This document shows, one piece after another, positions 15,005 to 63,995 of a DNA stretch of 64,000 nt (positions are counted from its first letter, which is position 1; the number at the start of each line of letters is the position of its first letter). The stretch comes from Acidimicrobiia bacterium (GTDB lineage: Bacteria > Actinomycetota > Acidimicrobiia > Spongiisociales > JAHEDJ01): positions 1,802 to 65,801 of the forward strand of contig JARGFH010000010.1 of assembly GCA_029210695.1 (NCBI GenBank), written 5' to 3'. Position numbers and translations under genes: made by a program. The notes under the pieces were generated by a model, which saw only the letters and a program-made list of their open reading frames with translations, ran no database searches and was not told the DNA's origin.

Positions 15005-15844
15005 TCACCAACCTTCGAGTTCGGCGACCCACTCAACGGCCACTTTCGCCAACTGGCGTTGGAGCCGACGCAACTCGGTTCCGTCGGCCGCCCAATCCGG
15101 TGGGGGCCGCGAGGCGTGGATACCCATCAACCCGGCCAACACGGATGCCCAGGCGGCAGGTTGAGGGAGAACATGCGGGGTTGGGGCGTGGCAGGCTCTC
15201 ATGTCGAGCAATGCAGTGGCGACGTCGAGGTAGCGGTTCCCGCGAGACACATACTCCCAATCAACGATCACCGGTCCGCGCTTCGTGAAGCAGAGGTTGC
15301 CGGCACCAAGGTCTGCGTGGATGAGATCGTCCCCCGACAGGTCTATCTTTGACGACAACTCGATCAGCCGGGTGCCATGTCGGGCGATCCACTCCAAATC
15401 CACGATGCCGAGACCCGTGATCTTTGCTGGATCCGCCGTGATTTCCGACCAAGGCGATACTTCGAGGGGCGGCATCGCTTCGAGATCGAAGGGCACTCTG
15501 GTGTCGGCGATCCGGGTCAGTGTGGGGAAGAGAATGCTCGACTCGGCCGGCCACGGCGGCGGCCACTGAGCCTTCGATAGATCTTCGAGGATGAGAATCG
15601 GTTCGGGACCGTCCTCCCATGCCCATACGACCGGGAGCCAGTCGGCCTCGAGCGCGGCGTACAGGCTGTGCTCCGTCCGCAGGGACCGGGCGGTTCGCTC
15701 ATCGGCAGCCGCCTTGACGAAAACCCTGGTGCCCGCTTCGGTGGTCACCATACCCCGCCACGACCGAGTGTGGCCCCCGGTCGGCTGCTGCACGTCGATG
15801 ACCGGGCTGTCGAGCAGACGTTCGAGGCGCTCGGGTGGATTCAT
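15005..15844 (-). CDS. phosphotransferase (APH/kinase-like) family protein
   Basis: DLIHADLGAGNL (catalytic loop HxDxxxxN) and VIVDWEYVSRGNRYLDVA (DxE/D motif). Start taken at MNPPERLERL (ATG 15842-15844); the longer track ORF to 16339 is rejected as an N-terminal over-extension. Confidence 0.6.
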   Translation of the reverse strand: MNPPERLERLLDSPVIDVQQPTGGHTRSWRGMVTTEAGTRVFVKAAADERTARSLRTEHSLYAALEADWLPVVWAWEDGPEPILILEDLSKAQWPPPWPAESSILFPTLTRIADTRVPFDLEAMPPLEVSPWSEITADPAKITGLGIVDLEWIARHGTRLIELSSKIDLSGDDLIHADLGAGNLCFTKRGPVIVDWEYVSRGNRYLDVATALLDMRACHAPTPHVLPQPAAWASVLAGLMGIHASRPPPDWAADGTELRRLQRQLAKVAVEWVAELEGW

Positions 15845-15899: not shown

Positions 15900-16859
15900 G
15901 TGGCTTTCTCTGAGGCTTCGGTCCCGGTGCGTTCCGACCTCGCCGCTGCGCTGCGACAAGTGTGGGCGAGCCTGGCGGCACCCGGGACGTGGTGGTCGGG
16001 TGTCGAGCGGGTCGCCATCGCCGGCGCGGCCAGGGGCCAGGCGACCGACGTCATTCCGGCCTCCGCCGGGGCAGCTGCCCGGACGGTGTACGCAGATATC
16101 ACCGCCACCTCGCGGGACTGGGTGGACAACTTGATACAGGATGGTCTGGGGATTCCGGCTTTCATCGAGATCATCGGGATCGTCAGCCGCCTGGCGGCGG
16201 TCGACGAATTCAGCAGAGCGCTCGGGCAATCGGTCGAACCCCTTCCGGATCCGCTTCCCGGCGACCCATCCTTCGAGCCGGCTCCTCCGGCCAGACCCGG
16301 CCGGTCGTGGCTCCCGACGGCCGGTCCGGCCTCGATCACCCAGTCGCTCAGCCTGGTGCCGGCCGAATCTGCCGCGCAGGAGGACCTCCATGGGCCCTTG
16401 TACCTGACCTATGAGCAGATGGGCGATTTGAGATTCCGGCGGGAACTCACCCGTCCTCAGATGGAACTCGTTGCCGCCCGCGTGTCGGCGGTCAACGAGT
16501 GCTTCTACTGAGTGCTTTCACACACGATGATGCTCCGGGCGAGCAGCGAGGCATTTTCATATCAGGTTGATCTGCGGTCCGTGACGGACCCCTCAGTAGA
16601 TCCTTTGCTTCCGCATGGTTCGGTCCTGATCGAATTCACCGATGCGGTTCTGGAGAGACGGGACGCCGGCACGATGCGGCGGGAAGTCATCGCAACCCTC
16701 GGTGAGGCCGGGTTGACCGGAGCAGCCGGGGTGATCGCCAACTTCTCGATGATGAATCGGATCGCCGATGCCACCGGGATGCCGACCGGCCGGGGCACTT
16801 TGGCACGAACCGCAGATGTCCGCGCCGCACTTGGACTCGATCGTTTCATGCATGACTAG
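15900..16859 (+). CDS. AhpD/carboxymuconolactone-decarboxylase (CMD) family peroxidase-related protein with in-frame TGA (candidate selenocysteine, CxxU) at 16509-16511
   Basis: Track ORFs 15591..16511 and 16512..16859 are the same frame, split only by the TGA. Across the TGA the sequence reads AVNECFY-TGA-VLSHT, matching the AhpD-core motif N-G-C-x-Y-C-x-x-S-H-T with TGA at the second Cys. Downstream IANFSMMNRIADATG continues the CMD domain. The 5' start is uncertain (GTG 15900 or ATG 15843). Confidence 0.5.
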
Positions 16860-31839: not shown

Positions 31840-32658
31840 TCAGCTTCGTCTCCGCTGCAGGCGGATGTTGAGCAGCATGATCGACACGGTGATGAAGAAG
31901 ATCGCCGCCCCGAACACATTCACCTGGGCAGGGACGCCGACGCGGGCGGCACCCCAGATGAAGAGCGGGAATGTGATTGTGTTGCCGGAGTTGAAGTTGG
32001 TGATGATGAAGTCGTCGAATGAGAGGGCGAACCCGAGCAGGAACGCAGCCATGACGCCCGGGAGGATCATCGGCAGCGTCACTTTGCGGAAAGTTGTCCA
32101 CTCGTTGGCGTAGAGGTCCATGGCGGCCTCCTCGAGGTGGCGATCGAATCCGGCCAGCCTCGCTTTGACTGTGACCACGACGTAGCTGATGTTGAACATG
32201 ATGTGGGCGATGACGATGGTTCCGAAGCCACGGGTGACCCCCATGACAATGAAGAGCGCCAGCAGCGAAGATCCCATCACCACCTCAGGGGTGGCCATCG
32301 GTAGGAACAACCCGAGACTGGTCGCCGACCGGCCCCTGAACTGGTAGCGGACTAGGGCGAGCGCGATGAGCGTCCCGAGGAGAGTGGCAATGGCCGAAGA
32401 GATGAAGGCGATCTGCAGACTCGTGACGAGGGAATCGAAGAGCCTCGGGACGCCGAAGGCGTTCTGCCAGTGGTCCAGAGTGAAGCCCTGCCATGTGAAG
32501 TTGTACCGTCCCAGGTGGTCGTTGAACGAGAACAGAATGACGATCGCCACCGGCATGAACAGATATGTCAAGGCGACGACCATGTAGACGGGCAAGATCT
32601 TGCGCTTGATCCACGCCCAGGCCGATGGCTTCCTGCGGGCCGTTGCTACCTGAGCCAT
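31840..32658 (-). CDS. ABC transporter permease (spermidine/putrescine PotC-like)
   Basis: 272 aa, 6 TM helices, EAA-loop region (EAAMDLYANEWTTFRKVTLP). Confidence 0.8.
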   Translation of the reverse strand: MAQVATARRKPSAWAWIKRKILPVYMVVALTYLFMPVAIVILFSFNDHLGRYNFTWQGFTLDHWQNAFGVPRLFDSLVTSLQIAFISSAIATLLGTLIALALVRYQFRGRSATSLGLFLPMATPEVVMGSSLLALFIVMGVTRGFGTIVIAHIMFNISYVVVTVKARLAGFDRHLEEAAMDLYANEWTTFRKVTLPMILPGVMAAFLLGFALSFDDFIITNFNSGNTITFPLFIWGAARVGVPAQVNVFGAAIFFITVSIMLLNIRLQRRRS

Positions 32659-33555
32659 CTACGCCACCAGATCCTCGGTGCCGGAAGCCCGGACGTAGGG
32701 GATGATGATCGCCAGGATCACCAGCATCAGCGAGAACGACAGGGCAGCTGCAGTCGGGTAGTCCACGATGCGGAGGAACCGGTTGTCGATGATGTTGCCG
32801 ACCATCAGCCGCTGCGGATTGCCGAGCAGGCTCGCGTTGACGAAATCGCCCGCCGCCGGGATCAGGGTCAGCAGCGTTCCGGCCACGATCCCCGGGAGGG
32901 ACAACGGCAGCGTGACCTTCCGAAAGGCGGTGATCGGCTTCGCATACAGATCATTGGCCGCCTCGATCAGTGACGGGTGAATCTTCTCCAGCGACACGTA
33001 GATCGGCAGGGTCATAAAGGCCAGGAAGTTGTAGGTGATGCCGGCCACGACCGCCGATCCGGTGGCGAGGATTCGTCCGGTCGGCGAGATGATGTGCAGC
33101 GTCTTGAGGGTTTCGACGACGAAGCCGCTGTCGGCCAGGATGACCTTCCAGGCCAGCGTTCGGAGGAGGAACGGAGTCAGGAACGGCATCAGCACGAGTA
33201 CCAGCAGCAGGTTCTTGTATTTCCCTCCCCGAAATGCGATGCCGTAGGCGAGCGGATAGGCGATGACGAGTGCCAGCGCGGTTGCCGCTCCCGCATAGAG
33301 GAACGAGCGAAGGAAGTGCGAGCCTGCCAACGCGAAGGCGTCGGCGTAGTTCTCCCATCGGAACGTCTGCGTGTAGCCCGTCTGGTAGGTCCCTTCCTGC
33401 AGGGAGATACCGACCAGCTGGATCATGGGGGCTATGTAGAAAATGGCCAGCCACAAACCGCCGGGGAGCAGCAGCAGGTATGGAACGGCCTTCCGGCGGC
33501 GGGCGGCCTTGCGGGCGCCGACGTTGACCAGTGGAGCGGCTTCCTCAGTCGTCAT
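32659..33555 (-). CDS. ABC transporter permease (PotB-like)
   Basis: Start at MTTEEAAPL, overlapping the ATPase gene end by about 11 nt. [23 protein letters not shown] motif. Confidence 0.8.
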   Translation of the reverse strand: MTTEEAAPLVNVGARKAARRRKAVPYLLLLPGGLWLAIFYIAPMIQLVGISLQEGTYQTGYTQTFRWENYADAFALAGSHFLRSFLYAGAATALALVIAYPLAYGIAFRGGKYKNLLLVLVLMPFLTPFLLRTLAWKVILADSGFVVETLKTLHIISPTGRILATGSAVVAGITYNFLAFMTLPIYVSLEKIHPSLIEAANDLYAKPITAFRKVTLPLSLPGIVAGTLLTLIPAAGDFVNASLLGNPQRLMVGNIIDNRFLRIVDYPTAAALSFSLMLVILAIIIPYVRASGTEDLVA

Positions 33556-34666
33556 GGATAACGAAACTCCGTTCGGGATGCCAGCCGAGGGAGACTTCCT
33601 CGCCTTGCGCGAAGCGATCGCCCGTGAGGTTTTGCACGACGGCGCTGAGGTCACCCGCCGTGTTGGTCCGCACCACGTAGTGGGTACTGACCCCGATGAA
33701 CGATGCGTCCAAGATCCGGCCGGTGAGGACATTGGGTGGGATGTCGCCGCTTCCATGCCGGTAGACGTTCAACTTCTCGGGCCTTACTCCGACTCGGAGT
33801 CCGCTGGTTTCTGCGCCGAGCGCGGTTGGCGGCACGAAGATGGTCGTTCCGTCGGCAGTTGCGACCGATCCGGCGGCCCGGTCGACCACCGACACCGGCA
33901 TCAGGTTGGAACCTCCGAGGAAGTTGGCGACGAACGCGGTCCTCGGGTCCTCGTATATCTCGGCGGGGTCGCCCATCCGTTCGATCTTCCCTTTGTTCAT
34001 CACGGCGATGGTGTCGGCCATGGTCATGGCCTCTTCCTGATCGTGCGTCACGTGGATGAACGTGATGCCGACCTCCTGCTGGATCCGCTTTAGTTCTATC
34101 TGCATCTCTTTGCGGAGCTTCAGATCGAGCGCGCCGAGCGGCTCATCGAGTAGCAGGACTCGCGGATGGTTGATCAGGGCGCGCGCCAGGGCAACCCGCT
34201 GCTGTTGTCCACCGGACAGTTTGGCGGGATGCCGGTTATCGAGGCCCGACAGTTGCACGAGAGACAACATCTCGGCGACCCGTCGCTCCAGGTCACCTTT
34301 GTCGACGTTGGTCCGGCGAAGGCCGAATGCGACGTTCTCGAAAACCGATAGGTGCGGAAAGAGGGCGTAGCTCTGGAAGACCGTGTTGACGGGCCGCCGG
34401 TAGGCTTTCAGACCCGTTACGTCGTCGCCGTGCAGGTTGATGCTGCCTTGGGTGGGGTCTTCGAAACCGCCGATCATGCGAAGCGTTGTGGTCTTGCCGC
34501 AGCCGGATGGTCCGAGGAGGGCGAAGAACTTGTTCTCGCCGATGGAGAGCGTCAGGTTGTCGACGGCCAGGACGTCGCCGAACCGCTTGGTGATGTTGAA
34601 GAGTTCGACGGCGGCGGGTTCGGATGGTCCGAACCCGCCTTCCGTCGTTGCGACCGAATCGATCAC
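33545..34666 (-). CDS. ABC transporter ATP-binding protein (PotA-like, with C-terminal TOBE domain)
   Basis: Walker [10 protein letters not shown], signature [15 protein letters not shown], Walker [12 protein letters not shown]. Confidence 0.85.
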   Translation of the reverse strand: MIDSVATTEGGFGPSEPAAVELFNITKRFGDVLAVDNLTLSIGENKFFALLGPSGCGKTTTLRMIGGFEDPTQGSINLHGDDVTGLKAYRRPVNTVFQSYALFPHLSVFENVAFGLRRTNVDKGDLERRVAEMLSLVQLSGLDNRHPAKLSGGQQQRVALARALINHPRVLLLDEPLGALDLKLRKEMQIELKRIQQEVGITFIHVTHDQEEAMTMADTIAVMNKGKIERMGDPAEIYEDPRTAFVANFLGGSNLMPVSVVDRAAGSVATADGTTIFVPPTALGAETSGLRVGVRPEKLNVYRHGSGDIPPNVLTGRILDASFIGVSTHYVVRTNTAGDLSAVVQNLTGDRFAQGEEVSLGWHPERSFVIHDD

Positions 34667-34669
34667 TCG

Positions 34670-35944
34670 CTATCCACCGGTGACGGCGGCGAAGAGCTCG
34701 TTGAGCTCGATCTCCTCTTCTTCGCTGAGGTCTCTGAAGATGTGGGTCTTGGCCAGAGTCGCCTCATCCGGGAAGATGAGCGGGTCGTCGGCGATTCCCG
34801 CCAGCTCTTCGTCGTCCATTTCTGTACCGAGCTGGCGGAGGGCTTCCTGCGCGCCGGCGACCGGGCAGATGTAATTGACCCAGCTCTCGATCTTGGCCGC
34901 CACGACCGGGTCGTAGACGTAGTTCATGAACGCTTCGGCTTCGGCCTTGTTGGTGGCGCCCTTGGGGATCAGCATGTTATCCGACCACAACATCAGGCCC
35001 TCTTCCGGAATCAGGAACTGGAGGTCGGGGTTGTCGATTTGCAGCTGGATGATGTCACCGGACCAGGCAAACGCGGCGGCCAGGTTGCCGGAGGCGAGCT
35101 CACCCGTGTAGTCGTTGCCGAGGAACTGACGGATCTGTCCGTTGTCCACGTTCTCCTGGATCTTGTCCATCGCTTGCCGTGCCTCGTCCATGGTGAACGT
35201 TGCCGGATCGAGGCCCATGCCGAGCATCACCAGCCCGAGAGTGTCACGCATCTCGGTCAGCAAACTGACGCTGCCGGCGATGGCCGGATCGAAGATGTCG
35301 TTGATTGATGACAGCTCGCCACCGGTCAATGCAGGGTTGTATCCGATGGCGGTGAAGCCCGACTGCCACGGCAGGGTATAGGTGCGATCGGGGTCGAATC
35401 CCGGGCTCTCGAGCGCAGCTACCAGGTTGGCTGCGTTGGGGACGTTGGCTTTGTTGATCTCATCGACCCATCCGAGCTGGATGAAGCGGGCCGCCATCCA
35501 GTCGGTCAATACTGCGATGTCGCGGCCGATGTTCTCCCCGGCGCTCAGAGGAGCCTGATACTTGCCGAAGAAGCCGTCGTTGTCGTTGACTTCTTCGATG
35601 TACTCGAGCTCAATCCCCGTTTCGGCCATGAAGTCGTCGAGCGAGGAGGTCTCGAAGTAGCTGTCGTCCCCGCCCGGATCGATGTAGAAGGGCCAGTTGG
35701 CGATGACGAGTTTCTTCGGGCCCGACGCAGCGGTGGTGGCGGTGCCTCCGGTGCCGGCCAGCGTGGTGGCGGTTTCAGAACCGTCAACGCCGCAGGCGGC
35801 CAGCAGGGCGGGGCCACCGATCAAGAACAGGCCGGTTCCTCCTGCTTTCCTGAGGAACTCGCGCCGGTCGATGCCTTGCCTGGATAGTTCCCTCATCAGG
35901 GCATCTCTGTTGCCGCGTCGCTGTGATGGTCGCTTATTGGTCAT
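34670..35944 (-). CDS. ABC transporter substrate-binding lipoprotein (PotD/PotF polyamine-binding family), Tat signal
   Basis: SRREFLRKAGGTGL twin-arginine motif followed by lipobox LLAACG. Start at MTNKRP. Confidence 0.75.
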   Translation of the reverse strand: MTNKRPSQRRGNRDALMRELSRQGIDRREFLRKAGGTGLFLIGGPALLAACGVDGSETATTLAGTGGTATTAASGPKKLVIANWPFYIDPGGDDSYFETSSLDDFMAETGIELEYIEEVNDNDGFFGKYQAPLSAGENIGRDIAVLTDWMAARFIQLGWVDEINKANVPNAANLVAALESPGFDPDRTYTLPWQSGFTAIGYNPALTGGELSSINDIFDPAIAGSVSLLTEMRDTLGLVMLGMGLDPATFTMDEARQAMDKIQENVDNGQIRQFLGNDYTGELASGNLAAAFAWSGDIIQLQIDNPDLQFLIPEEGLMLWSDNMLIPKGATNKAEAEAFMNYVYDPVVAAKIESWVNYICPVAGAQEALRQLGTEMDDEELAGIADDPLIFPDEATLAKTHIFRDLSEEEEIELNELFAAVTGG

Positions 35945-36293
35945 GTGAGCCTCCTCAACGGATGGATCCGGCTTTCCGGGATCTGCAGTCTTTGCAGCTT
36001 CGCCTCCTGAGCGCATGATGCCCGTTGACCGCTGCCGGGCTGAGGCTACTTGCCGGTTTGCTGTCGTGTGGCTGTGATGCGCTCTGATTTGTCGCCGTCT
36101 GTAGCCGATCCCACCTCCCCGTAGTCGGTTCTTGTCGACTGGTCACGACATTATCGGTTGCGTTTCCGTTCGATGCAAGCGAAACTGCTGTACTGAGTGC
36201 TCGATTCGGTGGTTACGCATGCAGGGTTGGCGTCTGTCAATAGAATTGAGCTGAGTGGGTCCCCAAGGGATCACTAGGAGTAGTTGGTCGACA

Positions 36294-36773
36294 ATGGCGC
36301 AGAACACGGTGGCGAAACAACAACGGTCACGACTCGACGAGACGGACAGAGCCATCATCCGCCGTCTCCAAAGCGACGGCCGCATGCCGTTTTCGAGGCT
36401 CGGACCGCTCGTTGAGCTCTCCCCGGCGGCCGTCCGGCAGCGCGTATTGCAGCTCATGGAAGATGGAGTCATGTCCATCGTGGCGGTCACAGATCCGACT
36501 GCCATCGGCCATCGTGTTCAGGTGATGCTCGGTATCAAGGTCCAGGGCGACATCGACCGAGTGGTCGGGGACCTCGAAGCTCAGCCTGAAGTCGTGTATC
36601 TGGTCGTAACGGCGGGCCGTTTCGACCTGCTTGCCGAGATCGTATGCGAGGACACCACGCGACTGCTTGAGATCCTGCAGGGAATCCGTATGCAACCGGG
36701 CGTGCAGTCGGCGGAGGTCTTCTCTTATCTCCGCCTCGCCAAACAGACCTACAACTGGGGTGTACCGGAATGA
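36294..36773 (+). CDS. Lrp/AsnC family transcriptional regulator
   Basis: N-terminal HTH (LDETDRAIIRRLQSDGRMPFSRLGPLVELSPAAVRQRV) plus C-terminal RAM domain. Divergent from the ABC operon. Confidence 0.8.
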   Translation: MAQNTVAKQQRSRLDETDRAIIRRLQSDGRMPFSRLGPLVELSPAAVRQRVLQLMEDGVMSIVAVTDPTAIGHRVQVMLGIKVQGDIDRVVGDLEAQPEVVYLVVTAGRFDLLAEIVCEDTTRLLEILQGIRMQPGVQSAEVFSYLRLAKQTYNWGVPE

Positions 36774-36819
36774 ACCACCCGTCTTTGAGAACGACCACGA
36801 CCACCCGCGGAGGAATCAG

Positions 36820-38181
36820 ATGACCGCCCACATCGACCGAGATCGCGTCGAGCGTCTCACGAAGCAGATGGAAGAGAAACTCCTGGCACAGACTCGCCGG
36901 TCGGGGGAGTTCGTGGAGGAGGCCAAGCGAGTGCTGCCGGCCGGCGTCGCCTCTTCGTTCCAGGACCAACCTCCGCATCCGGTGTACATCGTCGAAGGGC
37001 ATGGTTCGCGCGTCGTAGATCTCGACGGCAACGACTATGCCGACTATCACAACGGCTTCGGCGTGATGGTCGTTGGCCACGCGCATCCGGTGATTGCGGG
37101 CGCTATCGCGGTCGCGGCTCACAAGGGAACCCATTTTGCGGCGCCGAATCAATCGGCGGTGCGGGTGGCAACGGAACTCTCCCGGAGGTTCCGCCTGCCC
37201 AAAGTCCGTTTCTCGAATTCGGGTACCGAAGCGACGCTCGACGCCGTCCGGCTGGGCCGGGCCTTCACCGGGAAAGATGCCATCGTCAAGATCGAGGGCT
37301 CATATCACGGGCATCATGATGCCGTAATGGTGTCGGTAGGGCCGGCCGCCGACAAGATGGGGCCAAGGGCGCATCCGGTCTCTGTTCCACAGACCGCCGG
37401 AATCCCATCCGCGTTGCTGGACCTCACCGTGGTCATCCCGTTCAACGACCCCGACGCCCTGGACGCAGTGCTCACCGAACACAGTGATATCGGGACGATG
37501 ATCATCGAACCGATCATGCTCAACATCGGAGTCGTTCCCCCGCTGGAAGGCTATCTCGAAGCGGTGCGCGAGATTACCCGGAAACATGGCGTCGTTCTGA
37601 TCTTCGATGAGGTGAAGACGGGAGCAACCATCGCGGCAGGCGGGGTGGTCGAACGCTACGGGGTGGTGCCGGATCTCATCGCGCTGGCCAAAGCGACGGG
37701 AGGCGGCACACCGATCGGTGCGGTGCTCGGCACCGATGAGATCATGGCTCAGATCAGCGACGGGACGGTGACGCAGATCGGGACGTTCAATGGGAATCCG
37801 CTCACCATGGCGGCGGCCGAGGCGACACTGACCCAGGTCCTCACCCCAGGCGCCTATCAGCGCCTCGAGCAAGCCGGCGATCGGATTTTGGCCGGATGTC
37901 AGGACGTGGTCGATCGCTACGACCTGCCTGCCTACGCGGTCGGTATGTCCTCCAAGGGCTGCGTCATGTTCTCCACCGAGCGGGTGGTGGACTACCGGTC
38001 GTACATCTCCGGGTTCGACGAGGGCCTCAACTACCTGGGTTGGCTGTACCACATGACCAACGGCGTCTACATGACGCCGGGGGCCGACGAGCAATGGACC
38101 CTCTCGGTTGCGCACTCGGACGAGGAACTCGACCACTACGTCGCGGTCTTCGAGGAGTTCGCCAAGGATGTGACTTCCTGA
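36820..38181 (+). CDS. class-III (aspartate aminotransferase family) PLP-dependent aminotransferase, GSA-aminomutase-like
   Basis: ATG 36820 with GGAGG RBS. Family signatures DYHNGFGVMVVGHAHP and VLIFDEVKTG (PLP-Lys region). Confidence 0.8.
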   Translation: MTAHIDRDRVERLTKQMEEKLLAQTRRSGEFVEEAKRVLPAGVASSFQDQPPHPVYIVEGHGSRVVDLDGNDYADYHNGFGVMVVGHAHPVIAGAIAVAAHKGTHFAAPNQSAVRVATELSRRFRLPKVRFSNSGTEATLDAVRLGRAFTGKDAIVKIEGSYHGHHDAVMVSVGPAADKMGPRAHPVSVPQTAGIPSALLDLTVVIPFNDPDALDAVLTEHSDIGTMIIEPIMLNIGVVPPLEGYLEAVREITRKHGVVLIFDEVKTGATIAAGGVVERYGVVPDLIALAKATGGGTPIGAVLGTDEIMAQISDGTVTQIGTFNGNPLTMAAAEATLTQVLTPGAYQRLEQAGDRILAGCQDVVDRYDLPAYAVGMSSKGCVMFSTERVVDYRSYISGFDEGLNYLGWLYHMTNGVYMTPGADEQWTLSVAHSDEELDHYVAVFEEFAKDVTS

Positions 38182-38226
38182 AGTCGGAGCTGTGCTGGTG
38201 AGACCACAGCAGGAGCGAGGAGCCCA

Positions 38227-39855
38227 GTGAAACCGGGTCAGCCTGCCGATCTCATTGTCCACGGTGGCACCATCGTGACGGTGGATCGGGACCAACCCGA
38301 AGCCGACCACCTCATTGTCCGGGGTGGAAGGATCGTGGCGATGAGCGGTGGCCTCGACGAGTGGGTAGGTCCCGGGACGGATATCGTCGATCTGGATGGC
38401 CGGATGGTGCTGCCCGGCTTCCAGGACTCCCATGTTCATCCCCCGATTGGTGGGCTGAATCTCCTGCGCTGCAACCTGGCGAACGACCCCGATCGAGGCG
38501 CCTATCTGGACAGCATCCGGCGGTATGCCGACGATCACCCCGAGCGGGAGTGGATTCTGGGAGGCGGCTGGGGCATGGATCACTTCCCCAACGGCATTCC
38601 AACCAGGGACGAACTCGACCGCCTGGTTGCCGACCGCCCGGTATTCCTCGTCAACCGGGACGGCCACGGCGCATGGGTCAACTCGAAAGCTTTGGAACTG
38701 GCCGGTATCGGACGGCACACCGACGACCCGGCCGACGGTCGAATCGAGCGAGACGCCGGCGGAGATCCCATCGGCTGCCTGCAGGAAGGTGCCATGGATC
38801 TGGTCGAGAGGTTGGTGCCTGAGACAACGGATACCGAACTGCAACAGGCACTGACCAAAGGGCAGAGCTACCTGTTGTCGCTGGGGATCACTGCCTGGCA
38901 GGACGCCTGGGTAACCAGCCAGGTTGAAGAGGCATATCGAACTCTTGCAGCGGACGGGAGTCTGAAAGCCCGGGTGGTCGGCGCGCTCTGGTGGGAACGG
39001 GATCGAGGCGAAGAGCAGATCGAAGAGCTCCAGCGGAGGAGGGCAAGGGGGCCGGCCGGGAGATTCAAACCCGGCGCAGTGAAGATCATGCTCGACGGCG
39101 TCGCCGAGAACTTCACGGCCGCGCTGCTCGAGCCGTACCGCGGCGCAGACGGCCGGCCAACCAAGAACGCCGGCCTCGACTTCATTGACCCGTCGCGGCT
39201 CGGCCGATACGTAGCGCGGTTGGACGCCGCCGGGTTTCAGGTCCACTTCCATGCCATCGGCGATCGCGCCGTCCGAAACGCCCTGGACGCCGTCGACCAG
39301 GCCAGACGGGTCAACGGCGCATCGGATCACCGCCATCACATTGCCCATCTCCAGCTGGTTCACCCGGACGACATCCCTCGATTCCGCCTGCTCGACGTGG
39401 TGGCCAACGCGCAGCCGTTCTGGGCGGTCCACGAGGACCAGCAGGATCACCTCACTGCTCCGTTTCTGGGTCCACACCGCAGCGGTTGGCAATACCCGTG
39501 GCACAGCCTGGTGCGCAGTGGCGCTCGCCTTGCCTTCGGAAGCGACTGGTCGGTATCCACCCCGAACCCCCTGGCGATCATCGAAACCGCGGTGAGGCGT
39601 GTGTCGCCGTTCGATCGAGCTGCCGCCGAGTTCTATCCCGAGGAAAGGCTTGATCTCGGAATTGCCTTGCAGGCGGCCACCAGAGGAAGCGCCTACGTGA
39701 ATCATCTCGATCACCTGACCGGGACTCTGGTCCCCGGCAAACTGGCCGACTTCGTCGTCCTGGATCGTGACATCCGCCACAGCCCCGTGGATGAGATCGC
39801 TGATGCAGGAGTGGAGATGACGTTCATCGAAGGCGAGTGCGTTTATGAGAACTGA
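38227..39855 (+). CDS. amidohydrolase family protein (amidohydrolase-3 / metal-dependent hydrolase)
   Basis: N-terminal PGFQDSHVHP metal-binding HxH motif. FHAIGDRA and AFGSDWSV(ST) C-terminal metal ligands. 542 aa. Confidence 0.75.
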   Translation: MKPGQPADLIVHGGTIVTVDRDQPEADHLIVRGGRIVAMSGGLDEWVGPGTDIVDLDGRMVLPGFQDSHVHPPIGGLNLLRCNLANDPDRGAYLDSIRRYADDHPEREWILGGGWGMDHFPNGIPTRDELDRLVADRPVFLVNRDGHGAWVNSKALELAGIGRHTDDPADGRIERDAGGDPIGCLQEGAMDLVERLVPETTDTELQQALTKGQSYLLSLGITAWQDAWVTSQVEEAYRTLAADGSLKARVVGALWWERDRGEEQIEELQRRRARGPAGRFKPGAVKIMLDGVAENFTAALLEPYRGADGRPTKNAGLDFIDPSRLGRYVARLDAAGFQVHFHAIGDRAVRNALDAVDQARRVNGASDHRHHIAHLQLVHPDDIPRFRLLDVVANAQPFWAVHEDQQDHLTAPFLGPHRSGWQYPWHSLVRSGARLAFGSDWSVSTPNPLAIIETAVRRVSPFDRAAAEFYPEERLDLGIALQAATRGSAYVNHLDHLTGTLVPGKLADFVVLDRDIRHSPVDEIADAGVEMTFIEGECVYEN

Positions 39856-39865
39856 AAGGTGACAA

Positions 39866-42361
39866 ATGACGGATGACGGAAGTCGGAGCATGGCGGAGAC
39901 GAGGCCGGACAAGTCGCTCCCCGATCGGGCGCGAGTAGTCATCATCGGAGGCGGCGTGATCGGTGCCAGCGTCGCCTATCACCTCACCAAGCTCGGATGG
40001 AGTGACGTAGTCCTGTTGGAGCGCGATCAGCTCAACTCGGGTACCACCTGGCACGCGGCGGGTCTCGTCGTGTCGGGAGGCATGACAACGGAGACGCTGG
40101 CATGGATGGCGAAGTACTCGCGTGACCTCTTCGAGGTCCTCGAGGAGGAGACGGGTCTCTCGACGGGTTTTCGCCCCGTTGGATACCTGCAGACGGGGAG
40201 CACGAAGGAGCGGACGCACAAGCTCCGCCGCGAAGCGGACTTCATGCGACTCATGGGGATCGATCGCCAGGAAATCTCTCCTGCTGAGGTCGCCGCCATG
40301 TGGCCTCAGATTGACGCCAGAGATGTCATGGCAGGCTTCTTCACTGCCAACGAGGGTAGGGCCGATCCCTCGAGCGTCACGCTGTCCCTGGCCAAAGGGG
40401 CGAGGATGCGAGGCGCTCGCGTTTTCGAAGGCACTCGCGTAACCGGGATCCAGAAAGAGGATGGACGAGTCACCGGGGTCTTGACCGACCAGGGGACGAT
40501 TGAAGCCGAGTACGTCGTCAACTGCGCAGGGATGTGGGCGAAACAGGTCGGTGCAATGGCCGGCGCCTCGGTGCCACTCCAGGCGATCGAGCATGCGTAC
40601 TTGATCAGCGAGCCATTCGAGGGGGTGTCGCGAGATCTGCCGATCTTCGAAGATCCGGATCGGTTCGCCTACTACCGCGAAGAGGTCGGGGGTCTCATGG
40701 TGGGTCTCTTCGAGCCGGTGGCGGCTCCGTGGTCGCTCGACGCCATTCCCGATGATTTCAGCTTCGGTGAGATACCGTCGGATTGGGATCGACTGGCGCC
40801 TTTTTTGGAGTACGCGATGGAGATCCTGCCCGCCCTGGCCAACGTGGGCATTCGCAAGTTATTCACCGGCCCTGAGAGTTTCACTCCGGATAATGGATTC
40901 CTGATCGGGGAGGCTCCCGAGCTGCGCAACTTCTTCGTGGCCGCCGGCTTCAATTCCTTGGGGATCCTCACCGGCGGCGGCGCCGGGTCGATAGTCGCCA
41001 ACTGGATCGTCGATGGCCTTCCGCCGGTCGACGTTACTGACATCGACATCGCCAGGTTGCTGCCGTTTCAGACGAACCGCCCGTATCTGGCGGAACGCAG
41101 CGTCGAGTTGCTCGGCAGGCTGCACTCGACGGGCTCATGGCCGCACTCCCACCCGACCACGGCACGAAACGTGCGGCGCTCCGCGATACACGAAAGACTC
41201 GAGAAGGCCGGAGCTCATTTTGCGGACTCCTCCGGATGGGAAAACGCCGCCTGGTTCGCGCCGCCCGGCGTCGAGATCGAGTACCAGCAGGCCTACGCAC
41301 GCAAGGAGTGGTTCGAGTTTCATGCAGCCGAACACAAGGCGGTCCGCCAGGGTGTGGCGCTGTTCGACCTGTCGTCGATGTCGAAGTTCCTGCTGCAAGG
41401 CCCCGATGCCGAGAGTTCTCTCAATCATCTGGCAGGCAACAATGTGGCGGTCCCGATCGGGCGGTGCGTCTACACACAGTTCTTGAACGTGCGAGGAGGT
41501 GTGGAAGCCGATGTGACGGTGACCCGGATTGCGGGGGACCGCTTTTTCATCGTCGCCGCTGAGGCTTTTCATCGGAGGGTTGAGAACATGCTGCATAGGG
41601 GCATACCGGCCAACGCCCGCGCCTATGTGACGGACGTGACTTCCGGATACACACTGCTCAGTGTGCAGGGCCCCGAGTCGCGCAATCTTCTGAGCACCGT
41701 CACGACCGCCGGGTTGACCAACGACGTCTTCCCCTACTTCACGGGGCAAGAAATCGACATACACATGGCGAGGGTTTGGGCGCTGAGGATGAGCTTCGTC
41801 GGTGAACTCGGATGGGAACTCTACGTCCCCACGGAATTCGCCCTCGGCGTGTACGACCGGATCATCGAAGCCGGAGCCGAGTTCGGTCTCGCGCACGCTG
41901 GCATCGAGACGCTCGAGAGCACTCGGACCGAAGCAGGCAGGCGAGACTACGGGCTCGACATGGAGAACAGCGACACTGCTCTCGAAGCAGGCCTCGGCTT
42001 TGCCATCGATTTCGACAAGCCGGGCGGATTTGTCGGTCGCCGGGCGCTCCTGGCGCAACGGGAAAACCGGCCACTGCCATCCCGGCTGGTCCAGTTCCTG
42101 CTCGAAGATCCCGAGCCGCTGCTGTACGGGGAAGAGCCCATTCTGCGCAACGGGGTGGCGGTTGGCTACCTTCGATCGGGCGCCTACGGGCACACACTCG
42201 GCGGTGCCATGGGATTCGGCTACGTTGAACACGCCGACGGTGTGACCCCGGATCTACTCCGCGCTGGTGGATTTGAGATCCTGGTGGCGGGTGAACGATT
42301 CTCCGCCAGAGCATCGCTCCGGCCGATGTACGACCCCGGGGCCGAACGTGTGCGAATGTGA
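39866..42361 (+). CDS. dimethylglycine-oxidase/dehydrogenase-like protein (N-terminal FAD DAO domain fused to C-terminal GcvT folate-binding aminomethyltransferase domain)
   Basis: 831 aa. VVIIGGGVIGASVAYHL Rossmann motif and TTWHAAGLV. C-terminal GcvT-like region (GELGWELYVP, RLEAG). Architecture and length match Arthrobacter DMGO and DMGDH/sarcosine dehydrogenase. Confidence 0.75.
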   Translation: MTDDGSRSMAETRPDKSLPDRARVVIIGGGVIGASVAYHLTKLGWSDVVLLERDQLNSGTTWHAAGLVVSGGMTTETLAWMAKYSRDLFEVLEEETGLSTGFRPVGYLQTGSTKERTHKLRREADFMRLMGIDRQEISPAEVAAMWPQIDARDVMAGFFTANEGRADPSSVTLSLAKGARMRGARVFEGTRVTGIQKEDGRVTGVLTDQGTIEAEYVVNCAGMWAKQVGAMAGASVPLQAIEHAYLISEPFEGVSRDLPIFEDPDRFAYYREEVGGLMVGLFEPVAAPWSLDAIPDDFSFGEIPSDWDRLAPFLEYAMEILPALANVGIRKLFTGPESFTPDNGFLIGEAPELRNFFVAAGFNSLGILTGGGAGSIVANWIVDGLPPVDVTDIDIARLLPFQTNRPYLAERSVELLGRLHSTGSWPHSHPTTARNVRRSAIHERLEKAGAHFADSSGWENAAWFAPPGVEIEYQQAYARKEWFEFHAAEHKAVRQGVALFDLSSMSKFLLQGPDAESSLNHLAGNNVAVPIGRCVYTQFLNVRGGVEADVTVTRIAGDRFFIVAAEAFHRRVENMLHRGIPANARAYVTDVTSGYTLLSVQGPESRNLLSTVTTAGLTNDVFPYFTGQEIDIHMARVWALRMSFVGELGWELYVPTEFALGVYDRIIEAGAEFGLAHAGIETLESTRTEAGRRDYGLDMENSDTALEAGLGFAIDFDKPGGFVGRRALLAQRENRPLPSRLVQFLLEDPEPLLYGEEPILRNGVAVGYLRSGAYGHTLGGAMGFGYVEHADGVTPDLLRAGGFEILVAGERFSARASLRPMYDPGAERVRM

Positions 42362-42408: not shown

Positions 42409-43815
42409 ATGGGAAGTGAAAGTTGGGCAGTGCAGGCATTGGCCGGCGCCAAGCCGGCCGTGTTTTGGTCCGACCGCCAGGACGCTCCACCACCGGCACC
42501 TTCTCTTGGTGGCGAAGTCACGGCAGACCTCACCGTGATCGGCGGGGGCCTGACCGGCCTATGGACGGCGGTTCAGGCACTTGAGGATCAGCCCGACCTG
42601 AGCGTCGTCCTGCTCGAAGCCGAGCGATGCGGCTTTGGTGCCAGTTCCCGCAACGGTGGATTCTGTGACGGCTCGCTCACCCACGGCCTCGCAAACGGGC
42701 TGTCACACTGGCCCGATGAAATGAGGAGCCTGATCCGGCTCGGGCGCGAGAACCTCAACGGCATCGATGCCGGCATCATCCGTTACGGGATCAACGCCGA
42801 TTACCGGCGGGCAGCAGAAATCGACGTGGCGACGGAAGCCTGGCATGTCGAGGCCTTGGGGGAAGCAGTCGAGCAGCACGTGACGTTCGGAGACGACGTC
42901 GAGTTGGTCGGTGCCGATGAGATGCAGGCCCGGATCCATTCGCCGACCTACCTGGGTGGCCTCGTTCGCCACAACGACATAGCGTTGGTCGACCCTGCCC
43001 GTCTCTGTTGGGGGCTACGTCGAGCGGCGGAGTCTCTGGGTGCAGCGCTCTACGAGAACTCACCTGCCACGGCGGTGGAGAGCGATGGCCGCGACTTGAA
43101 AGTCGTAACTCCGACCGGCACCGTCCGCTGCGGGCGAGTCGTGATGGCCACCAACGCCTATGCCGGTCCCATCGGCCGACCGCGCCGGTACATCATCCCG
43201 GTCTACGACCATGTTCTCATGACCCAACCCTTGAGTTCGGAACAGCTGACGTCGATCGGATGGCAGGAAAGGGAGGGGGTTGGGGACGTTTCGAACCAGT
43301 TCCATTACTACCGGTTGACCGAAGACAACAGGATTCTGTGGGGCGGTTACGACGCTACTTATCACTTCGGTAGCGATCTGGATCCGCAACATGATCAAAG
43401 CCAGGTCACGCACGGCTTGCTGGCCGAACATTTCTTCGAGACATTCCCCCAACTCGAGGGCCTACGGTTCACGCATCGTTGGGGTGGACCCGTTGCGACG
43501 ACCTCGCATTTTGCCCCCACCTGGGGATCCGCCCACGGTGGCCGTCTGACATGGGTGGGCGGCTACACAGGATTGGGTGTTGGTTCCAGCCGCTTCGGGG
43601 CGCGGGTGGCTTTGGATCTTGTTTTCGGACGGACCACGGAATACACCGAGTTGGAAATGGTGAGGAAGAAGCCGTTTCCGTTCCCGCCCGAACCATTGCG
43701 GTGGGCAGTGGTCCAACTCACCCGCAAAGCCATCCAGAGATCCGACCGTCACGGCGGCAAACGCGGTGCCTGGCTCGGATTGCTCGACCGTTTTGGCGTG
43801 GGATTCGACTCGTGA
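42409..43815 (+). CDS. FAD-dependent oxidoreductase (DAO family; PuuB/sarcosine-oxidase-beta-like)
   Basis: LTVIGGGLTGLWTA Rossmann motif and GFGASSRNGG. About 468 aa. Confidence 0.7.
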   Translation: MGSESWAVQALAGAKPAVFWSDRQDAPPPAPSLGGEVTADLTVIGGGLTGLWTAVQALEDQPDLSVVLLEAERCGFGASSRNGGFCDGSLTHGLANGLSHWPDEMRSLIRLGRENLNGIDAGIIRYGINADYRRAAEIDVATEAWHVEALGEAVEQHVTFGDDVELVGADEMQARIHSPTYLGGLVRHNDIALVDPARLCWGLRRAAESLGAALYENSPATAVESDGRDLKVVTPTGTVRCGRVVMATNAYAGPIGRPRRYIIPVYDHVLMTQPLSSEQLTSIGWQEREGVGDVSNQFHYYRLTEDNRILWGGYDATYHFGSDLDPQHDQSQVTHGLLAEHFFETFPQLEGLRFTHRWGGPVATTSHFAPTWGSAHGGRLTWVGGYTGLGVGSSRFGARVALDLVFGRTTEYTELEMVRKKPFPFPPEPLRWAVVQLTRKAIQRSDRHGGKRGAWLGLLDRFGVGFDS

Positions 43816-43879
43816 CCCCCACGTTTCAGCAACCGATCAACAACCCACGCTAACCACGCCGACGCAAGGAGATTTCCGC

Positions 43880-45259
43880 ATGACTGTCGACTACCGCAGT
43901 CTTTCGTTCTGGCTGGATGCTCATCCCGGAGCACTCGACCCACGCCCCCCGCTCGGGGGCGACACTCAGGTCGACGTGGCCATAGTCGGTGGCGGATACA
44001 CCGGCCTGTGGACCGCCTACTACCTCCTCCGCCTGGACCCGACATTGCGGGTGTTGGTGATCGAGAAGGAGATCGTCGGTTTCGGCGCCTCAGGTCGCAA
44101 TGGGGGTTGGTGTGTCGGTGAACTGGCGGCGAGCCCGGATCGTCATGAGCGGGTCGCCGGCAACGATGCCGCTCGGCGTTTGCTGCGAGAGGTTTTCGAC
44201 TCGGTCGATGAGGTGGGGCGCGTTGGAGAAAGGGAGGGTATCGACTGTCACTTCGCCAAGGGGGGCACGATCCGCTTGGCTCGAAACGAGGCACAGTTGG
44301 CGCGTCAGCGTGCAGAGGTCGCCCACCACCAGCTTTCATTCGGACTCACCGACGATGATCTCCGCATGCTCGACGCCGGTGAAGCCAGGGCTCATCTCAA
44401 TGCCACCGACGTGGTTGGGGGGTTGTTCTACGCCCATACCGCGGCATTGGACCCTGCCCGACTCGTCCGGGGTTTGGGCGAAGCGGTCGAGCGGTTGGGC
44501 GGCACTATCGTCGAGCAGACCGCTGCGACCGCCATCGAAGCGGGTCGGGTCGTGACCGAACTCGGCACAGTTGGGGCAGAGGTGGTGGTGCGAGCCACTG
44601 AGGGCTACACCCCAACGCTCGAGGGCCACGGGCGCACGCTGTCGCCCCTGTACTCCCTGATGGTGGCCACCGAACCACTCGGCGACGACCGTTGGGCAGA
44701 AATCGGGCTGTCCGACCGGCAGACTTTCTCAGATGATCGCCACATGGTCATCTACGGCCAGCGCACCGCGGATGGACGAATTGCGTTCGGTGGGCGAGGT
44801 GCGCCCTATGGTTTTGGCTCCAGGATCGACCCGGCCATCGAGCAGCGGTCGCGAATACACGATCGGATCGTCGCCTCACTGGTTGAGTTGTTCCCGGTAC
44901 TTGAAGGCATCGGCATCACCCACCGCTGGGGCGGGGTGCTCGGTGTGCCGCGCGACTGGTACCCGTCGGTCGGGTTCGATCGCACCACCGGGATCGCCTG
45001 GGCAGGCGGTTACGTCGGGGAGGGCGTATCGCCGTCAAACCTCGCCGGTCGCACACTCGCCGAGCTGATTACGGGCACTGAGTCTCCGCGGGTCGATCTC
45101 CCCTGGGTGGGGCATCGGTCCCGCAAATGGGAACCCGAACCGATTCGCTGGCTCGCTATCAACGGCGCCCTGGCAGTGATGGGACAGGCGGACCGCTCCG
45201 AGTCACGCTCCGGCAAGGACTCCACTCTTGCCAAGCTGATGTGGAAGTTGATGCGGTGA
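43880..45259 (+). CDS. FAD-dependent oxidoreductase (DAO family), paralog of 42409..43815
   Basis: ATG 43880 with AAGGAGA RBS. VAIVGGGYTGLWTA and GFGASGRNGG are co-linear with the upstream paralog. Confidence 0.7.
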   Translation: MTVDYRSLSFWLDAHPGALDPRPPLGGDTQVDVAIVGGGYTGLWTAYYLLRLDPTLRVLVIEKEIVGFGASGRNGGWCVGELAASPDRHERVAGNDAARRLLREVFDSVDEVGRVGEREGIDCHFAKGGTIRLARNEAQLARQRAEVAHHQLSFGLTDDDLRMLDAGEARAHLNATDVVGGLFYAHTAALDPARLVRGLGEAVERLGGTIVEQTAATAIEAGRVVTELGTVGAEVVVRATEGYTPTLEGHGRTLSPLYSLMVATEPLGDDRWAEIGLSDRQTFSDDRHMVIYGQRTADGRIAFGGRGAPYGFGSRIDPAIEQRSRIHDRIVASLVELFPVLEGIGITHRWGGVLGVPRDWYPSVGFDRTTGIAWAGGYVGEGVSPSNLAGRTLAELITGTESPRVDLPWVGHRSRKWEPEPIRWLAINGALAVMGQADRSESRSGKDSTLAKLMWKLMR

Positions 45260-51260: not shown

Positions 51261-51275
51261 TGCCCACTCCTCCTA

Positions 51276-60587: not shown

Positions 60588-63995
<3,408 letters not shown>

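Follow-up and report, generated by a model that had tools for sequence, protein, structure and literature searches.

Structure and annotation of the gene

The DNA analyzed in this work, hereinafter referred to as the window, is a stretch of 64,000 nucleotides (64 kb) from the metagenome-assembled genome (MAG) of a member of the Acidimicrobiia. The features recognized in the region under study are reported in Table 1. The translation of positions 15900-16859 yields 319 sense codons with one internal stop, a TGA, across which the protein reads ...AVNE-C-F-Y-*-V-L-S-H-T...; the same frame then runs on for 115 amino acids, up to the TAG at 16857. This confirms what an earlier note, made from the letters of the sequence, had claimed, i.e., that a single reading frame is broken solely by the TGA at 16509-16511. 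The start of the gene given there (15591) has to be corrected, this position being merely the upstream edge of the open frame, which shares bases with a divergent minus-strand gene. The start is the GTG at 15900, in agreement with the GenBank product MDF1595442.1 (P1T08_05015), a hypothetical protein of 203 amino acids that corresponds to positions 15900-16508 and ends before the TGA. This entry almost certainly represents a mis-annotated gene, truncated at the selenocysteine (Sec) codon.

Table 1. Coordinates of the features recognized in the predicted selenoprotein gene (positions of the window).
Feature	Position	Strand	Evidence or remark
Complete gene of the predicted selenoprotein	15900..16859	+	GTG start, 319 codons including UGA-204, TAG stop; member of NF041238 (AhpD_rel_CFYUT)
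N-terminal helical domain, AhpD/CMD-like fold without redox motif (~residues 1-107)	15900..16220	+	
Catalytic CMD/AhpD-core domain (~residues 152-295), spanning the TGA	16353..16784	+	PF02627, TIGR01926 and PDB alignments
Glu189, counterpart of Glu118 in the relay of M. tuberculosis AhpD, 12 residues ahead of the first Cys	16464..16466	+	Without exception in sets of 51 and 72 homologs; spacing compared with PMC3141380
Cys201-Phe202-Tyr203, first half of C-x-x-U	16500..16508	+	C201 and Y203 invariant; F202 in at least 90% of homologs
In-frame UGA, putative Sec204, at the place of Cys133 in M. tuberculosis AhpD, the second Cys of CxxC	16509..16511	+	TGA in all the 94 copies of the 81 loci; Cys in PDB homologs, TGC in rare non-Sec members
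His208, counterpart of His137 in M. tuberculosis AhpD (C-x-x-U-x-x-x-H)	16521..16523	+	CAC or CAT in 93/93 copies
SECIS-like hairpin	16529..16547	+	Stem 16531-16535 (UGCUC) x 16541-16545 (GAGCA); apical loop 16536-16540 (CGGGC)
True stop codon TAG	16857..16859	+	Translation, frames of homologs

TGA is the stop codon of 25 of the 36 NCBIfam-verified genes of the 64-kb window, in line with the earlier statement that other genes end in TGA and that the codon is not globally reassigned. A second pair of same-frame ORFs split by a TGA (36610-38181 and 38182-39855) was rejected as a selenoprotein, the two ORFs being unrelated genes for a class-III aminotransferase and an amidohydrolase.

Family membership and domain architecture

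The joined protein, with a Cys placed at the TGA, belongs to the family NF041238, whose model it matches from position 66 to position 356 (of 357) with 276.4 bits (E = 3.7e-82), the curated equivalog cutoff being 175. Since this alignment crosses the stop and reaches model position 356, and since PDB 2pfx aligns with residues 180-295, its KCFYCLVAH lying over ECFY[U]VLSH, the 115 downstream amino acids are part of the same protein, as the earlier note had proposed. The C-F-Y-U signature of the family is found as C201-F-Y-[TGA]204 and also in all the 94 copies discussed below. The full-length architecture, i.e., an N-terminal extension followed by a C-terminal CMD domain, is found as well, with the first ~65 model positions partly present. 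In the structure predicted for the N-terminal 203 amino acids, the AhpD-like domain reaches a pLDDT of 93. As to the catalytic domain, Pfam CMD (PF02627) matches residues 174-214 with 27.3 bits (gathering threshold 23) and TIGR00778 (ahpD_dom) scores 31.6 bits (cutoff 27.8), and PDB 2pfx, 6k40 and 3c1l align with residues 152/180-295. TIGR01926, a related family distinct from NF041238, stays below its cutoff (42.8 against 81.8 bits) and covers residues 182-295 only; the score on the canonical AhpD model, TIGR00777, is also below cutoff (12.6 against 191.95 bits), so that the protein does not qualify as a canonical AhpD.

A 2026 review (PMC13188914) lists NF041238 as a CxxU selenoprotein with one Sec and equates it with the "hypothetical protein 1" that Zhang, Fomenko and Gladyshev had listed in 2005 (PMC1088965) for the selenoproteome of the Sargasso Sea. 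The earlier note had likewise remarked that AhpD-like selenoproteins are reported from other bacteria. The selenoprotein family is, in other words, already known, having been catalogued since 2005, and biologically there is nothing new in kind at this locus. The protein under study shares with that family the C-F-Y-U motif, the single Sec (predicted here), the length class and a stem-loop with a G in the loop after the UGA. However, some differences can be observed. The Sec is followed by Val in this and in the other copies from Acidimicrobiia, unlike the Thr of the family name (CFYUT); moreover, the N-terminus is shorter, model position 66 corresponding to residue 52 at the start of the alignment, and the residues preceding the Sec are ~203 in Acidimicrobiia versus ~245-250 in most other phyla. 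The AhpD-like 1, AhpD-like 2 and CMD-domain selenoproteins of marine metagenomes (COG2128, TIGR01926, PF02627; PMC2398784, PMC1088965) have in common with it the CMD/AhpD-core, the CxxU motif in which Sec is the second residue and a redox function, predicted to be based on thiol/selenol chemistry. They are, however, single-domain proteins of ~180 amino acids, whereas the protein described here possesses an additional N-terminal AhpD-like domain of ~150 residues.

Active site

The residues of the proton relay of AhpD were compared by their spacing (PMC3141380). In M. tuberculosis AhpD (PDB 1gu9; TIGR00777), the relay is formed by Glu118, Cys130, His132, Cys133 and His137, and in P. aeruginosa PA0269 (PDB 2o4d) by Glu36, Cys48, Tyr50, Cys51 and His55; in both cases the spacing is identical to that of E189, C201, Y203, U204 and H208, with Tyr203 taking the position of His132 in the former and of Tyr50 in the latter. 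The all-helical AhpD fold is also shared with the two proteins, the difference being the second Cys, replaced here by the putative Sec. Neither ahpC nor genes of the lipoamide system (dlaT/lpd) are present among the annotated genes of the 64-kb window. Given this absence and the low TIGR00777 score, a role as peroxiredoxin reductase is not implied.

Conservation of the TGA and of the downstream frame

In the 81 loci retrieved, which harbor 94 copies of the gene, codon 204 is TGA in all the copies and never TAA, TAG or TGY. The TGA-bearing copies are found in Acidimicrobiia, Chloroflexota, Binatia, Acidobacteriota, Proteobacteria, Myxococcota and Thermodesulfobacteriota, the closest locus in the searched genome collection being 67% identical. 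One of the orthologs lies on a complete Acidimicrobiia chromosome, OZ244213.1 (L060). The frame after the TGA is open for 113-157 amino acids in each of the 94 copies and it is under coding selection. The median identity to the window protein is 41.6% upstream and 41.4% downstream of the TGA, and the substitutions with respect to the three syntenic orthologs (L001-L003) pile up at third codon positions (56-57, versus 21-36 at positions 1 and 2). These orthologs keep the TGA, the hairpin described below and the downstream homology; the behavior of the orthologs is, therefore, the one that the reading of the earlier note entails.

Coverage of the query is just 60-64% in all the 113 word-indexed homolog clusters, 112 of which stop right at C-x-Y. 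The placement of the TGA at the catalytic position of the second Cys, another claim of the earlier note, is borne out by the alignment at this point of the second Cys of PDB 2pfx and 6k40 and by the rare full-length members of NF041238 (P0123, P0140, P0247 and P0257), which carry a TGC codon there. A further member, P0129 (locus L086), is a Ser form with TCG at the Sec codon. When the best matches are grouped at 50% identity, the Cys forms represent ~3% of the clusters.

Tandem paralogs of the gene are present in Dehalococcoidia. No partner gene common to several phyla was found among the conserved neighbors across the 81 loci; the neighbor clusters occurring in 12-18 loci reflect lineage synteny, nearly all of these loci belonging to Dehalococcoidia/Chloroflexota.

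The SECIS-like hairpin

The stem-loop that the earlier note had placed after the TGA is indeed present and conserved at synonymous sites, but the string lies at 16529-16547 rather than at 16527-16547 and contains a mismatch (A16530 x G16546), beyond which an outer pair (G16529-C16547) flanks the core stem of 5 bp. The GG-containing apical loop reported there is the CGGGC of Table 1. The core hairpin, UGCUC-NG[U/G]NN-GAGC[A/G], lies 22-36 nt past the UGA, with the loop beginning 27 nt after the U of the UGA; the distance criterion in the description of bSECISearch is reportedly 16-37 nt from the UGA. The same hairpin recurs, without any shift in position, in 91 distinct sequences, its core pairs being kept in 85-91 of the 91, and RNAalifold independently predicts the same 5-bp stem. 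The apical loop conforms to N-G-[U/G]-N-N, with G in position 2 and U or G in position 3, in 93/93 copies.

The codon usage within the hairpin reveals that it is under nucleotide-level selection. At Leu codon 8, CTC is used in 93/93 copies, although it makes up 38% of the Leu codons in these genes; at Ser codon 11 the usage of AGY is 91/91 versus 36% in the same genes, and at Arg codon 9 CGC and CGA are never used versus 56% for both together in the same genes; the copy of the window itself carries the constrained codons CTC, CGG, GCG and AGC. Among the non-Sec relatives (n = 5, four with TGC and one with TCG), CUC is kept in one and the hairpin is lost in three (Fisher p = 1.4e-6), which shows that most of the rare Cys forms are free from the constraint. 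The hairpin persists in one Cys form (P0140; L081/L082) and in the Ser form (P0129) and is not strictly tied to the UGA; its survival in the Ser form could, in an unlikely reading, hint at a second role of the RNA element.

The fold of the 71 nt at 16500-16570 is no stabler than expected by chance (z = +1.69 with respect to shuffled sequences), so that the case for a SECIS is built on the comparison among the copies and not on the stability of a single sequence. The window hairpin (-6.0 kcal/mol) is the seventh weakest of the 93 of the family, and compensatory covariation is sparse in the near-invariant core stem, where 25 double-change cells were counted, a value reached by 53 of 500 shuffles. 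The search of the whole window against Rfam at gathering thresholds gave no match, a result that carries little weight because bacterial SECIS elements are poorly covered in Rfam. Compared with bacterial SECIS elements of the fdhF type, the hairpin is alike in being a stem-loop within the coding sequence soon after the UGA, with a small apical loop and a conserved G (G-U or G-G). It differs in the very short core stem (5 bp), in the variable and sometimes bulged outer stem, in the core GCUC/GAGC being near-invariant across phyla and in lacking an Rfam match; the binding of SelB is putative.

Decoding of the UGA

On the whole, the region 15900-16859 is one NF041238 gene, encoding a two-domain redox protein of the AhpD fold with ~319 residues, in which the UGA at 16509-16511 is very probably read as Sec204 through the putative SECIS hairpin. 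Judging from the sequence comparisons, this UGA almost certainly encodes selenocysteine; the site-specific insertion that the earlier note put forward is supported by the alignment with Cys, the orthologs, the hairpin and the ordinary TGA stops elsewhere. According to this model, the hairpin (core 16531-16545) would recruit, as a bacterial SECIS, SelB with GTP and Sec-tRNA(Sec); selenocysteine would enter at residue 204 and translation would run on for 115 residues. Sec204 would replace the second Cys of the AhpD C-x-x-C and, together with Glu189, Cys201, Tyr203 and His208, would rebuild the five-residue relay. The enzyme would most likely alternate between two redox states, a selenol/thiol one and one with a Cys201-Sec204 selenenylsulfide, and the substrate reduced might be a disulfide, a sulfenate or a peroxide. 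No report of experimental selenium incorporation into any NF041238 member was found in the literature searched.

The NCBIfam annotation of the 47 ORFs of the 64-kb window disclosed no selA, selB or selD, and ARAGORN detected no tRNA-Sec in the window nor in 60 related loci. A tblastn search across the related loci with an E. coli SelD sequence gave a sole match, in L032, which NCBIfam identifies as an oxidoreductase-SelD fusion; it belongs to another organism and is silent on the genome under study. Sec machinery is documented in Actinomarinales, another order of Acidimicrobiia (bioRxiv 10.64898/2026.04.03.716425), and we infer that it is present in this genome as well.

The lack of visible Sec machinery in the window is what one would expect if the UGA were read through with a non-Sec residue (e.g., Cys or Trp, by a near-cognate or mischarged tRNA) in an organism devoid of a functional Sec pathway, with a hairpin that does no more than cause pausing or stimulate read-through. 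The Ser form L086 and the Cys form L081/L082, which keep the hairpin without the UGA, point in the same direction, since the hairpin is maybe not exclusively a SECIS. However, NF041238 is curated as a selenoprotein and Cys, which is just one mutation away (TGA to TGC or TGT), is used by 0/94 copies, which argues for a UGA-encoded residue not replaceable by Cys. This explanation is, thus, very unlikely.

It is highly improbable that the TGA is a genuine stop, either of a pseudogene or of the first of two genes (203 amino acids at the N-terminus and 115 restarted at GTG 16512). This possibility would agree with the sole 203-aa product in GenBank, with the potential GTG start directly after the TGA in the window and with the use of TGA as the usual stop in this genome. 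Nevertheless, 94/94 copies from different phyla have the stop exactly where the catalytic Cys would be, which is not the outcome expected of decay. Moreover, most lineages continue with ACG, ACC or CTG, none of them a start codon, the two halves evolve at an equal rate under purifying selection, and a stop would part Cys201 from His208 inside one active-site helix. Finally, a TGC or TGT misread during sequencing or assembly, conceivable in a MAG, is scarcely credible, given that 80 loci assembled independently carry the same TGA, among them the syntenic orthologs and long-read complete chromosomes, and that the synonymous constraints of SECIS type (CTC, CGG, GCG, AGC) are present in the window itself.

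Significance for the annotation and the biology of the family

The practical value of a Sec204 reading lies in annotation repair only. The GenBank record and nearly all the metagenomic gene calls of NF041238 end at the Sec codon, giving rise to a "hypothetical protein" of 203-250 amino acids plus an orphan fragment of ~110 amino acids; in the protein collections searched, 112 of the 113 homolog clusters consist of such half-length entries, as do 145 of the 150 best C-terminal matches. Complete genes may be found and repaired by means of the signature formed by the invariant GCUC-NG[U/G]NN-GAGC hairpin, the near-absent Cys forms, the tandem AhpD fold and the tandem paralogs in Dehalococcoidia.

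As for the organism, the presence of the gene makes the use of selenocysteine probable in this Acidimicrobiia MAG. Concerning the family, an unlikely, though conceivable, reading is that NF041238 goes beyond one more CxxU variant of AhpD and constitutes an almost obligately selenium-dependent class of tandem-AhpD-fold (sestrin-like) enzymes, an idea compatible with the rarity of the Cys forms, with the lack of any Cys-using copy in the 81 loci and with a SECIS core frozen across at least seven phyla. If this were true, it would suggest a chemistry beyond the reach of Cys.

Gene Structure and Conservation of the In-Frame TGA

The frame starting at GTG 15900 contains 319 sense codons before its TAG and a sole internal stop, the TGA at codon 204, across which the translation reads ...RPQMELVAARVSAVNE-C-F-Y-[TGA]-V-L-S-H-T-M-M-L-R-A-S-S... 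The open frame reaches upstream as far as 15591, and the stretch from there to the GTG overlaps a divergent gene having a weak APH/thiamine-kinase-like match. The GTG start gives exactly the 203-aa GenBank product MDF1595442.1 (P0001, 'hypothetical protein P1T08_05015', recorded on an 83,123-bp contig of a MAG of an Acidimicrobiia bacterium), therefore confirming the observation of the earlier note that a single frame is broken by this TGA alone; GenBank holds only the N-terminal half, labelled hypothetical.

Coordinates of the features discussed in the text (positions refer to the window or to the homologous locus indicated)
Feature	Sequence	Position	Strand
Subject gene	window	15900-16859	+
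MDF1595442.1 (N-terminal half)	window	15900-16508	+
In-frame TGA	window	16509-16511	+
Second half	window	16512-16859	+
Putative SECIS hairpin core	window	16531-16545	+
Hairpin loop CGGGC	window	16536-16540	+
TAG stop	window	16857-16859	+
Divergent gene	window	15008-15844	-
potABCD-type polyamine ABC transporter operon 1	window	31843-36016	-
potABCD-type polyamine ABC transporter operon 2	window	50151-54009	-
ORF before rejected TGA	window	36631-38178	+
Rejected TGA	window	38179-38181	+
ORF after rejected TGA	window	38227-39852	+
FAD-oxidase/GcvT-type fusion 1	window	39866-42358	+
FAD-oxidase/GcvT-type fusion 2	window	45378-47846	+
Aminophosphonate-oxidoreductase-like genes (two)	window	42409-45256	+
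NrdJ	window	60591-63995	-
Oxidoreductase/SelD fusion	L032	4378-6777	-
tRNA-Pyl call	L057	2621-2702	-
Ser form P0129	L086	2001-2948	
Tandem paralogs	L025	10676 and 11784	

In a word-indexed search, query coverage was merely 60-64% in 113/113 homolog clusters, with the exact end at C-x-Y in 112; when the C-terminal 115 aa were searched exhaustively with HMMER, most hits were 100-160-aa fragments starting at a Met directly after the stop, which are the orphaned second halves of family members. Nearly all members in the public protein collections searched exist as two orphan halves (112/113 clusters, and 145 of the best 150 hits to the C-terminal part).

The genome scan disclosed more than 590 loci with homologs. 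In the best 80 of these plus the window, codon 204 is TGA in 94/94 copies, none having TAA, TAG, TGC or TGT, and the following frame stays open for 113-157 aa in each; orthologs with a genuine stop and no downstream homology are absent from this set. The median identity to the window is 41.6% upstream of the TGA vs 41.4% downstream, which, together with a profile match across the stop, bears out the claim that both segments form one protein. The window and its closest orthologs (L001-L003) share the gene order FAD-oxidoreductase, membrane protein, APH-like gene, subject gene, ATP-dependent DNA ligase, nitroreductase and RlmB, and differ at 56-57 third codon positions vs 21-36 first and second positions. 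TGA is the ordinary terminator of 25 of the 36 NCBIfam-verified window genes; as previously claimed, the codon is not reassigned, and recoding at codon 204 is site-specific.

As for other explanations, a UGA read through with a non-Sec residue is improbable. That the TGA is a genuine stop, in a split gene or pseudogene, is very improbable, and an assembly error is scarcely credible, since both are contradicted by the TGA found at the catalytic position in every copy across independent assemblies.

Thirteen Dehalococcoidia/Chloroflexota loci among the same best 80 (L025, L029, L034, L036, L037, L043, L044, L047, L052, L058, L062, L070 and L075) harbor two neighbouring selenoprotein genes of this one family, tandem paralogs about 1.1 kb apart, each with an in-frame TGA and a hairpin, the loop of the second copy being GGUCG.

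Family Membership, Active Site and Fold

Profile searches were performed on the joined protein, with a Cys put in at the stop. Their scores assign it to the NCBIfam equivalog NF041238 'AhpD_rel_CFYUT' (276.4 bits, cutoff 175), whose match spans model positions 66-356 of 357 and so crosses the stop; Pfam CMD PF02627 is also matched (27.3 bits, cutoff 23). The protein falls below the cutoffs of the peroxidase-related, single-domain AhpD-like proteins (TIGR01926, 42.8 vs 81.8 bits) and of canonical AhpD (TIGR00777, 12.6 vs 192 bits), and is a relative rather than a member of both. NF041238, which a 2026 review (PMC13188914) equates with "hypothetical protein 1" of the 2005 Sargasso Sea paper, has been known as a selenoprotein family for about 20 years; the 2005 paper noted its conserved CXXU motif and SECIS-like stem-loop, without functional evidence (PMC1088965). 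In GOS data, the related selenoproteins AhpD-like 1 and 2 belong to the most abundant ones (PMC2398784).

Solved relatives align over residues 152/180-295, and their C-x-x-C sits on C201...[TGA]204 (KCFYCLVAH in 2pfx, RCVYCAVSH in 6k40 AhpD). Residues E189, C201, Y203, U204 and H208 have the same spacing as the proton relays of M. tuberculosis AhpD (Glu118, Cys130, His132, Cys133, His137) and PA0269 (Glu36, Cys48, Tyr50, Cys51, His55) (PMC3141380). Alignment and spacing agree with the claim that the stop occupies exactly the catalytic second-Cys position of the AhpD motif, where Cys homologs carry their second Cys. E189, C201 and Y203 are unchanged in 72/72 homologs and H208 in 93/93 copies.

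The fold comparison, based on a model of the N-terminal 203 aa, listed 2pfx (8.1), Sestrin-2 (7.8), Atu0492 (7.7), SMU.961 (7.6), Bmp8 (7.3) and M. tuberculosis AhpD (7.2), and from it a tandem AhpD fold is predicted, with the redox motif absent from the first domain and C-x-x-U in the second.

Putative SECIS Hairpin

The stem-loop sequence given in the earlier note spans 16529-16547 rather than 16527-16547, with an A x G mismatch inside and a conserved core of only 5 bp. All copies share UGCUC-NG[U/G]NN-GAGC[A/G] at +22 to +36, counted from the first base of the UGA, and unguided RNAalifold finds the same 5-bp stem. Across 91 distinct sequences, each of the five core pairs is a standard pair in 85-91, and shifting the partner by one column lowers pairing from 81.5% to ~31%; real compensatory changes are few because the core is nearly invariant. 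Taken by itself, the sequence after the window's TGA is unremarkable: the local hairpin (-6.0 kcal/mol) is the 7th weakest of 93 (family median -10.7), and the 71 nt around it gain nothing in stability over shuffled sequences (z = +1.69).

Because the hairpin is embedded in conserved codons, [M/L]-L-[R/S/G]-x-S, synonymous sites were tested against the codon usage of the same genes. Leu codon 8 is CTC in 93/93 copies (background, 38% of Leu codons) and Ser codon 11 is AGY in 91/91 (36% of Ser codons); Arg codon 9 is never CGC or CGA (together 56% of Arg codons). Codon 9 varies among R, S and G with its second base constantly G, the third base of codon 10 is always G, and loop positions 2 and 3 are G and U/G in 93/93. 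The selection seen at these frozen sites acts on the RNA rather than on the protein.

A natural control is offered by the non-Sec forms: of the 150 best hits in the exhaustive search, the only full-length relatives are four Cys forms (TGC) and one Ser form (TCG), with codons verified in DNA. In three of the four Cys forms, CUC has given way to CUG, CUU or CUA and the stem is gone; one of these also uses CGC (CUC in Sec vs non-Sec forms, Fisher's test, p = 1.4e-6). The hairpin is still present in one Cys form (P0140, L081/L082), where it is intact and of SECIS type, and in the Ser form P0129 (CAY-S, -11.9 kcal/mol), where a compensated pair, CUG...CAG, replaces CUC...GAG. Either these two were recently converted from Sec, or the hairpin serves some purpose besides Sec insertion.

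Sec Machinery and Gene Neighbourhood

No tRNA gene occurs in the 64-kb window, nor are selA, selB or selD among its 47 annotated ORFs; for the source organism, we infer a Sec pathway from the selenoprotein gene itself. In Actinomarinales, another order of the same class, selA, selB, selC and selD are universal (bioRxiv 10.64898/2026.04.03.716425). In a Spirochaetales MAG (L032), the AhpD-related selenoprotein gene is preceded, about 5 kb upstream, by a verified 800-aa pyridine-nucleotide-disulfide oxidoreductase/SelD fusion (TIGR03169, 380 bits; TIGR00476 selD, 259 bits). Near the copy in a Thermoanaerobaculia MAG chromosome (L057), ARAGORN called a tRNA-Pyl with anticodon CTA, which may be spurious or may represent a tRNA of the suppressor type.

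Among 81 loci, no neighbour gene was found conserved across phyla, and no ahpC adjoins the subject gene. The window genes include polyamine ABC transporters, FAD oxidases, aminotransferases, DNA ligase and NrdJ. Its amine-catabolism modules are duplicated, a feature unconnected with the selenoprotein: two transporter operons, two ~830-aa FAD-oxidase/GcvT-type aminomethyltransferase fusions, two adjoining aminophosphonate-oxidoreductase-like genes and two GSA-aminomutase-like transaminases. The B12-dependent ribonucleotide reductase NrdJ (1135 aa), whose open frame is cut by the window edge at its upstream end, has its model matches split over two stretches, possibly reflecting an insertion or a domain gap. 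Another pair of ORFs sharing a frame around a TGA was rejected as a recoding site: they encode two unrelated proteins, a class-III aminotransferase and an amidohydrolase, and the TGA between them is thus an ordinary stop.

Interpretation

The reading of TGA 16509-16511 as a site-specific Sec codon is judged correct, given its invariance and the synonymous-site constraint on the hairpin; very probably, a redox protein with a tandem AhpD fold receives Sec at residue 204 in a SelB/SECIS-dependent manner. Sec204 would then pair with Cys201 as a selenenylsulfide redox couple, served by a relay of Glu189, Tyr203 and His208. It is unlikely that NF041238 represents a sestrin-like class of tandem-AhpD enzymes with unknown chemistry and an almost obligate dependence on Sec. 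What was found is a routine, already known member of a curated selenoprotein family, cut short by gene callers and in the GenBank record.
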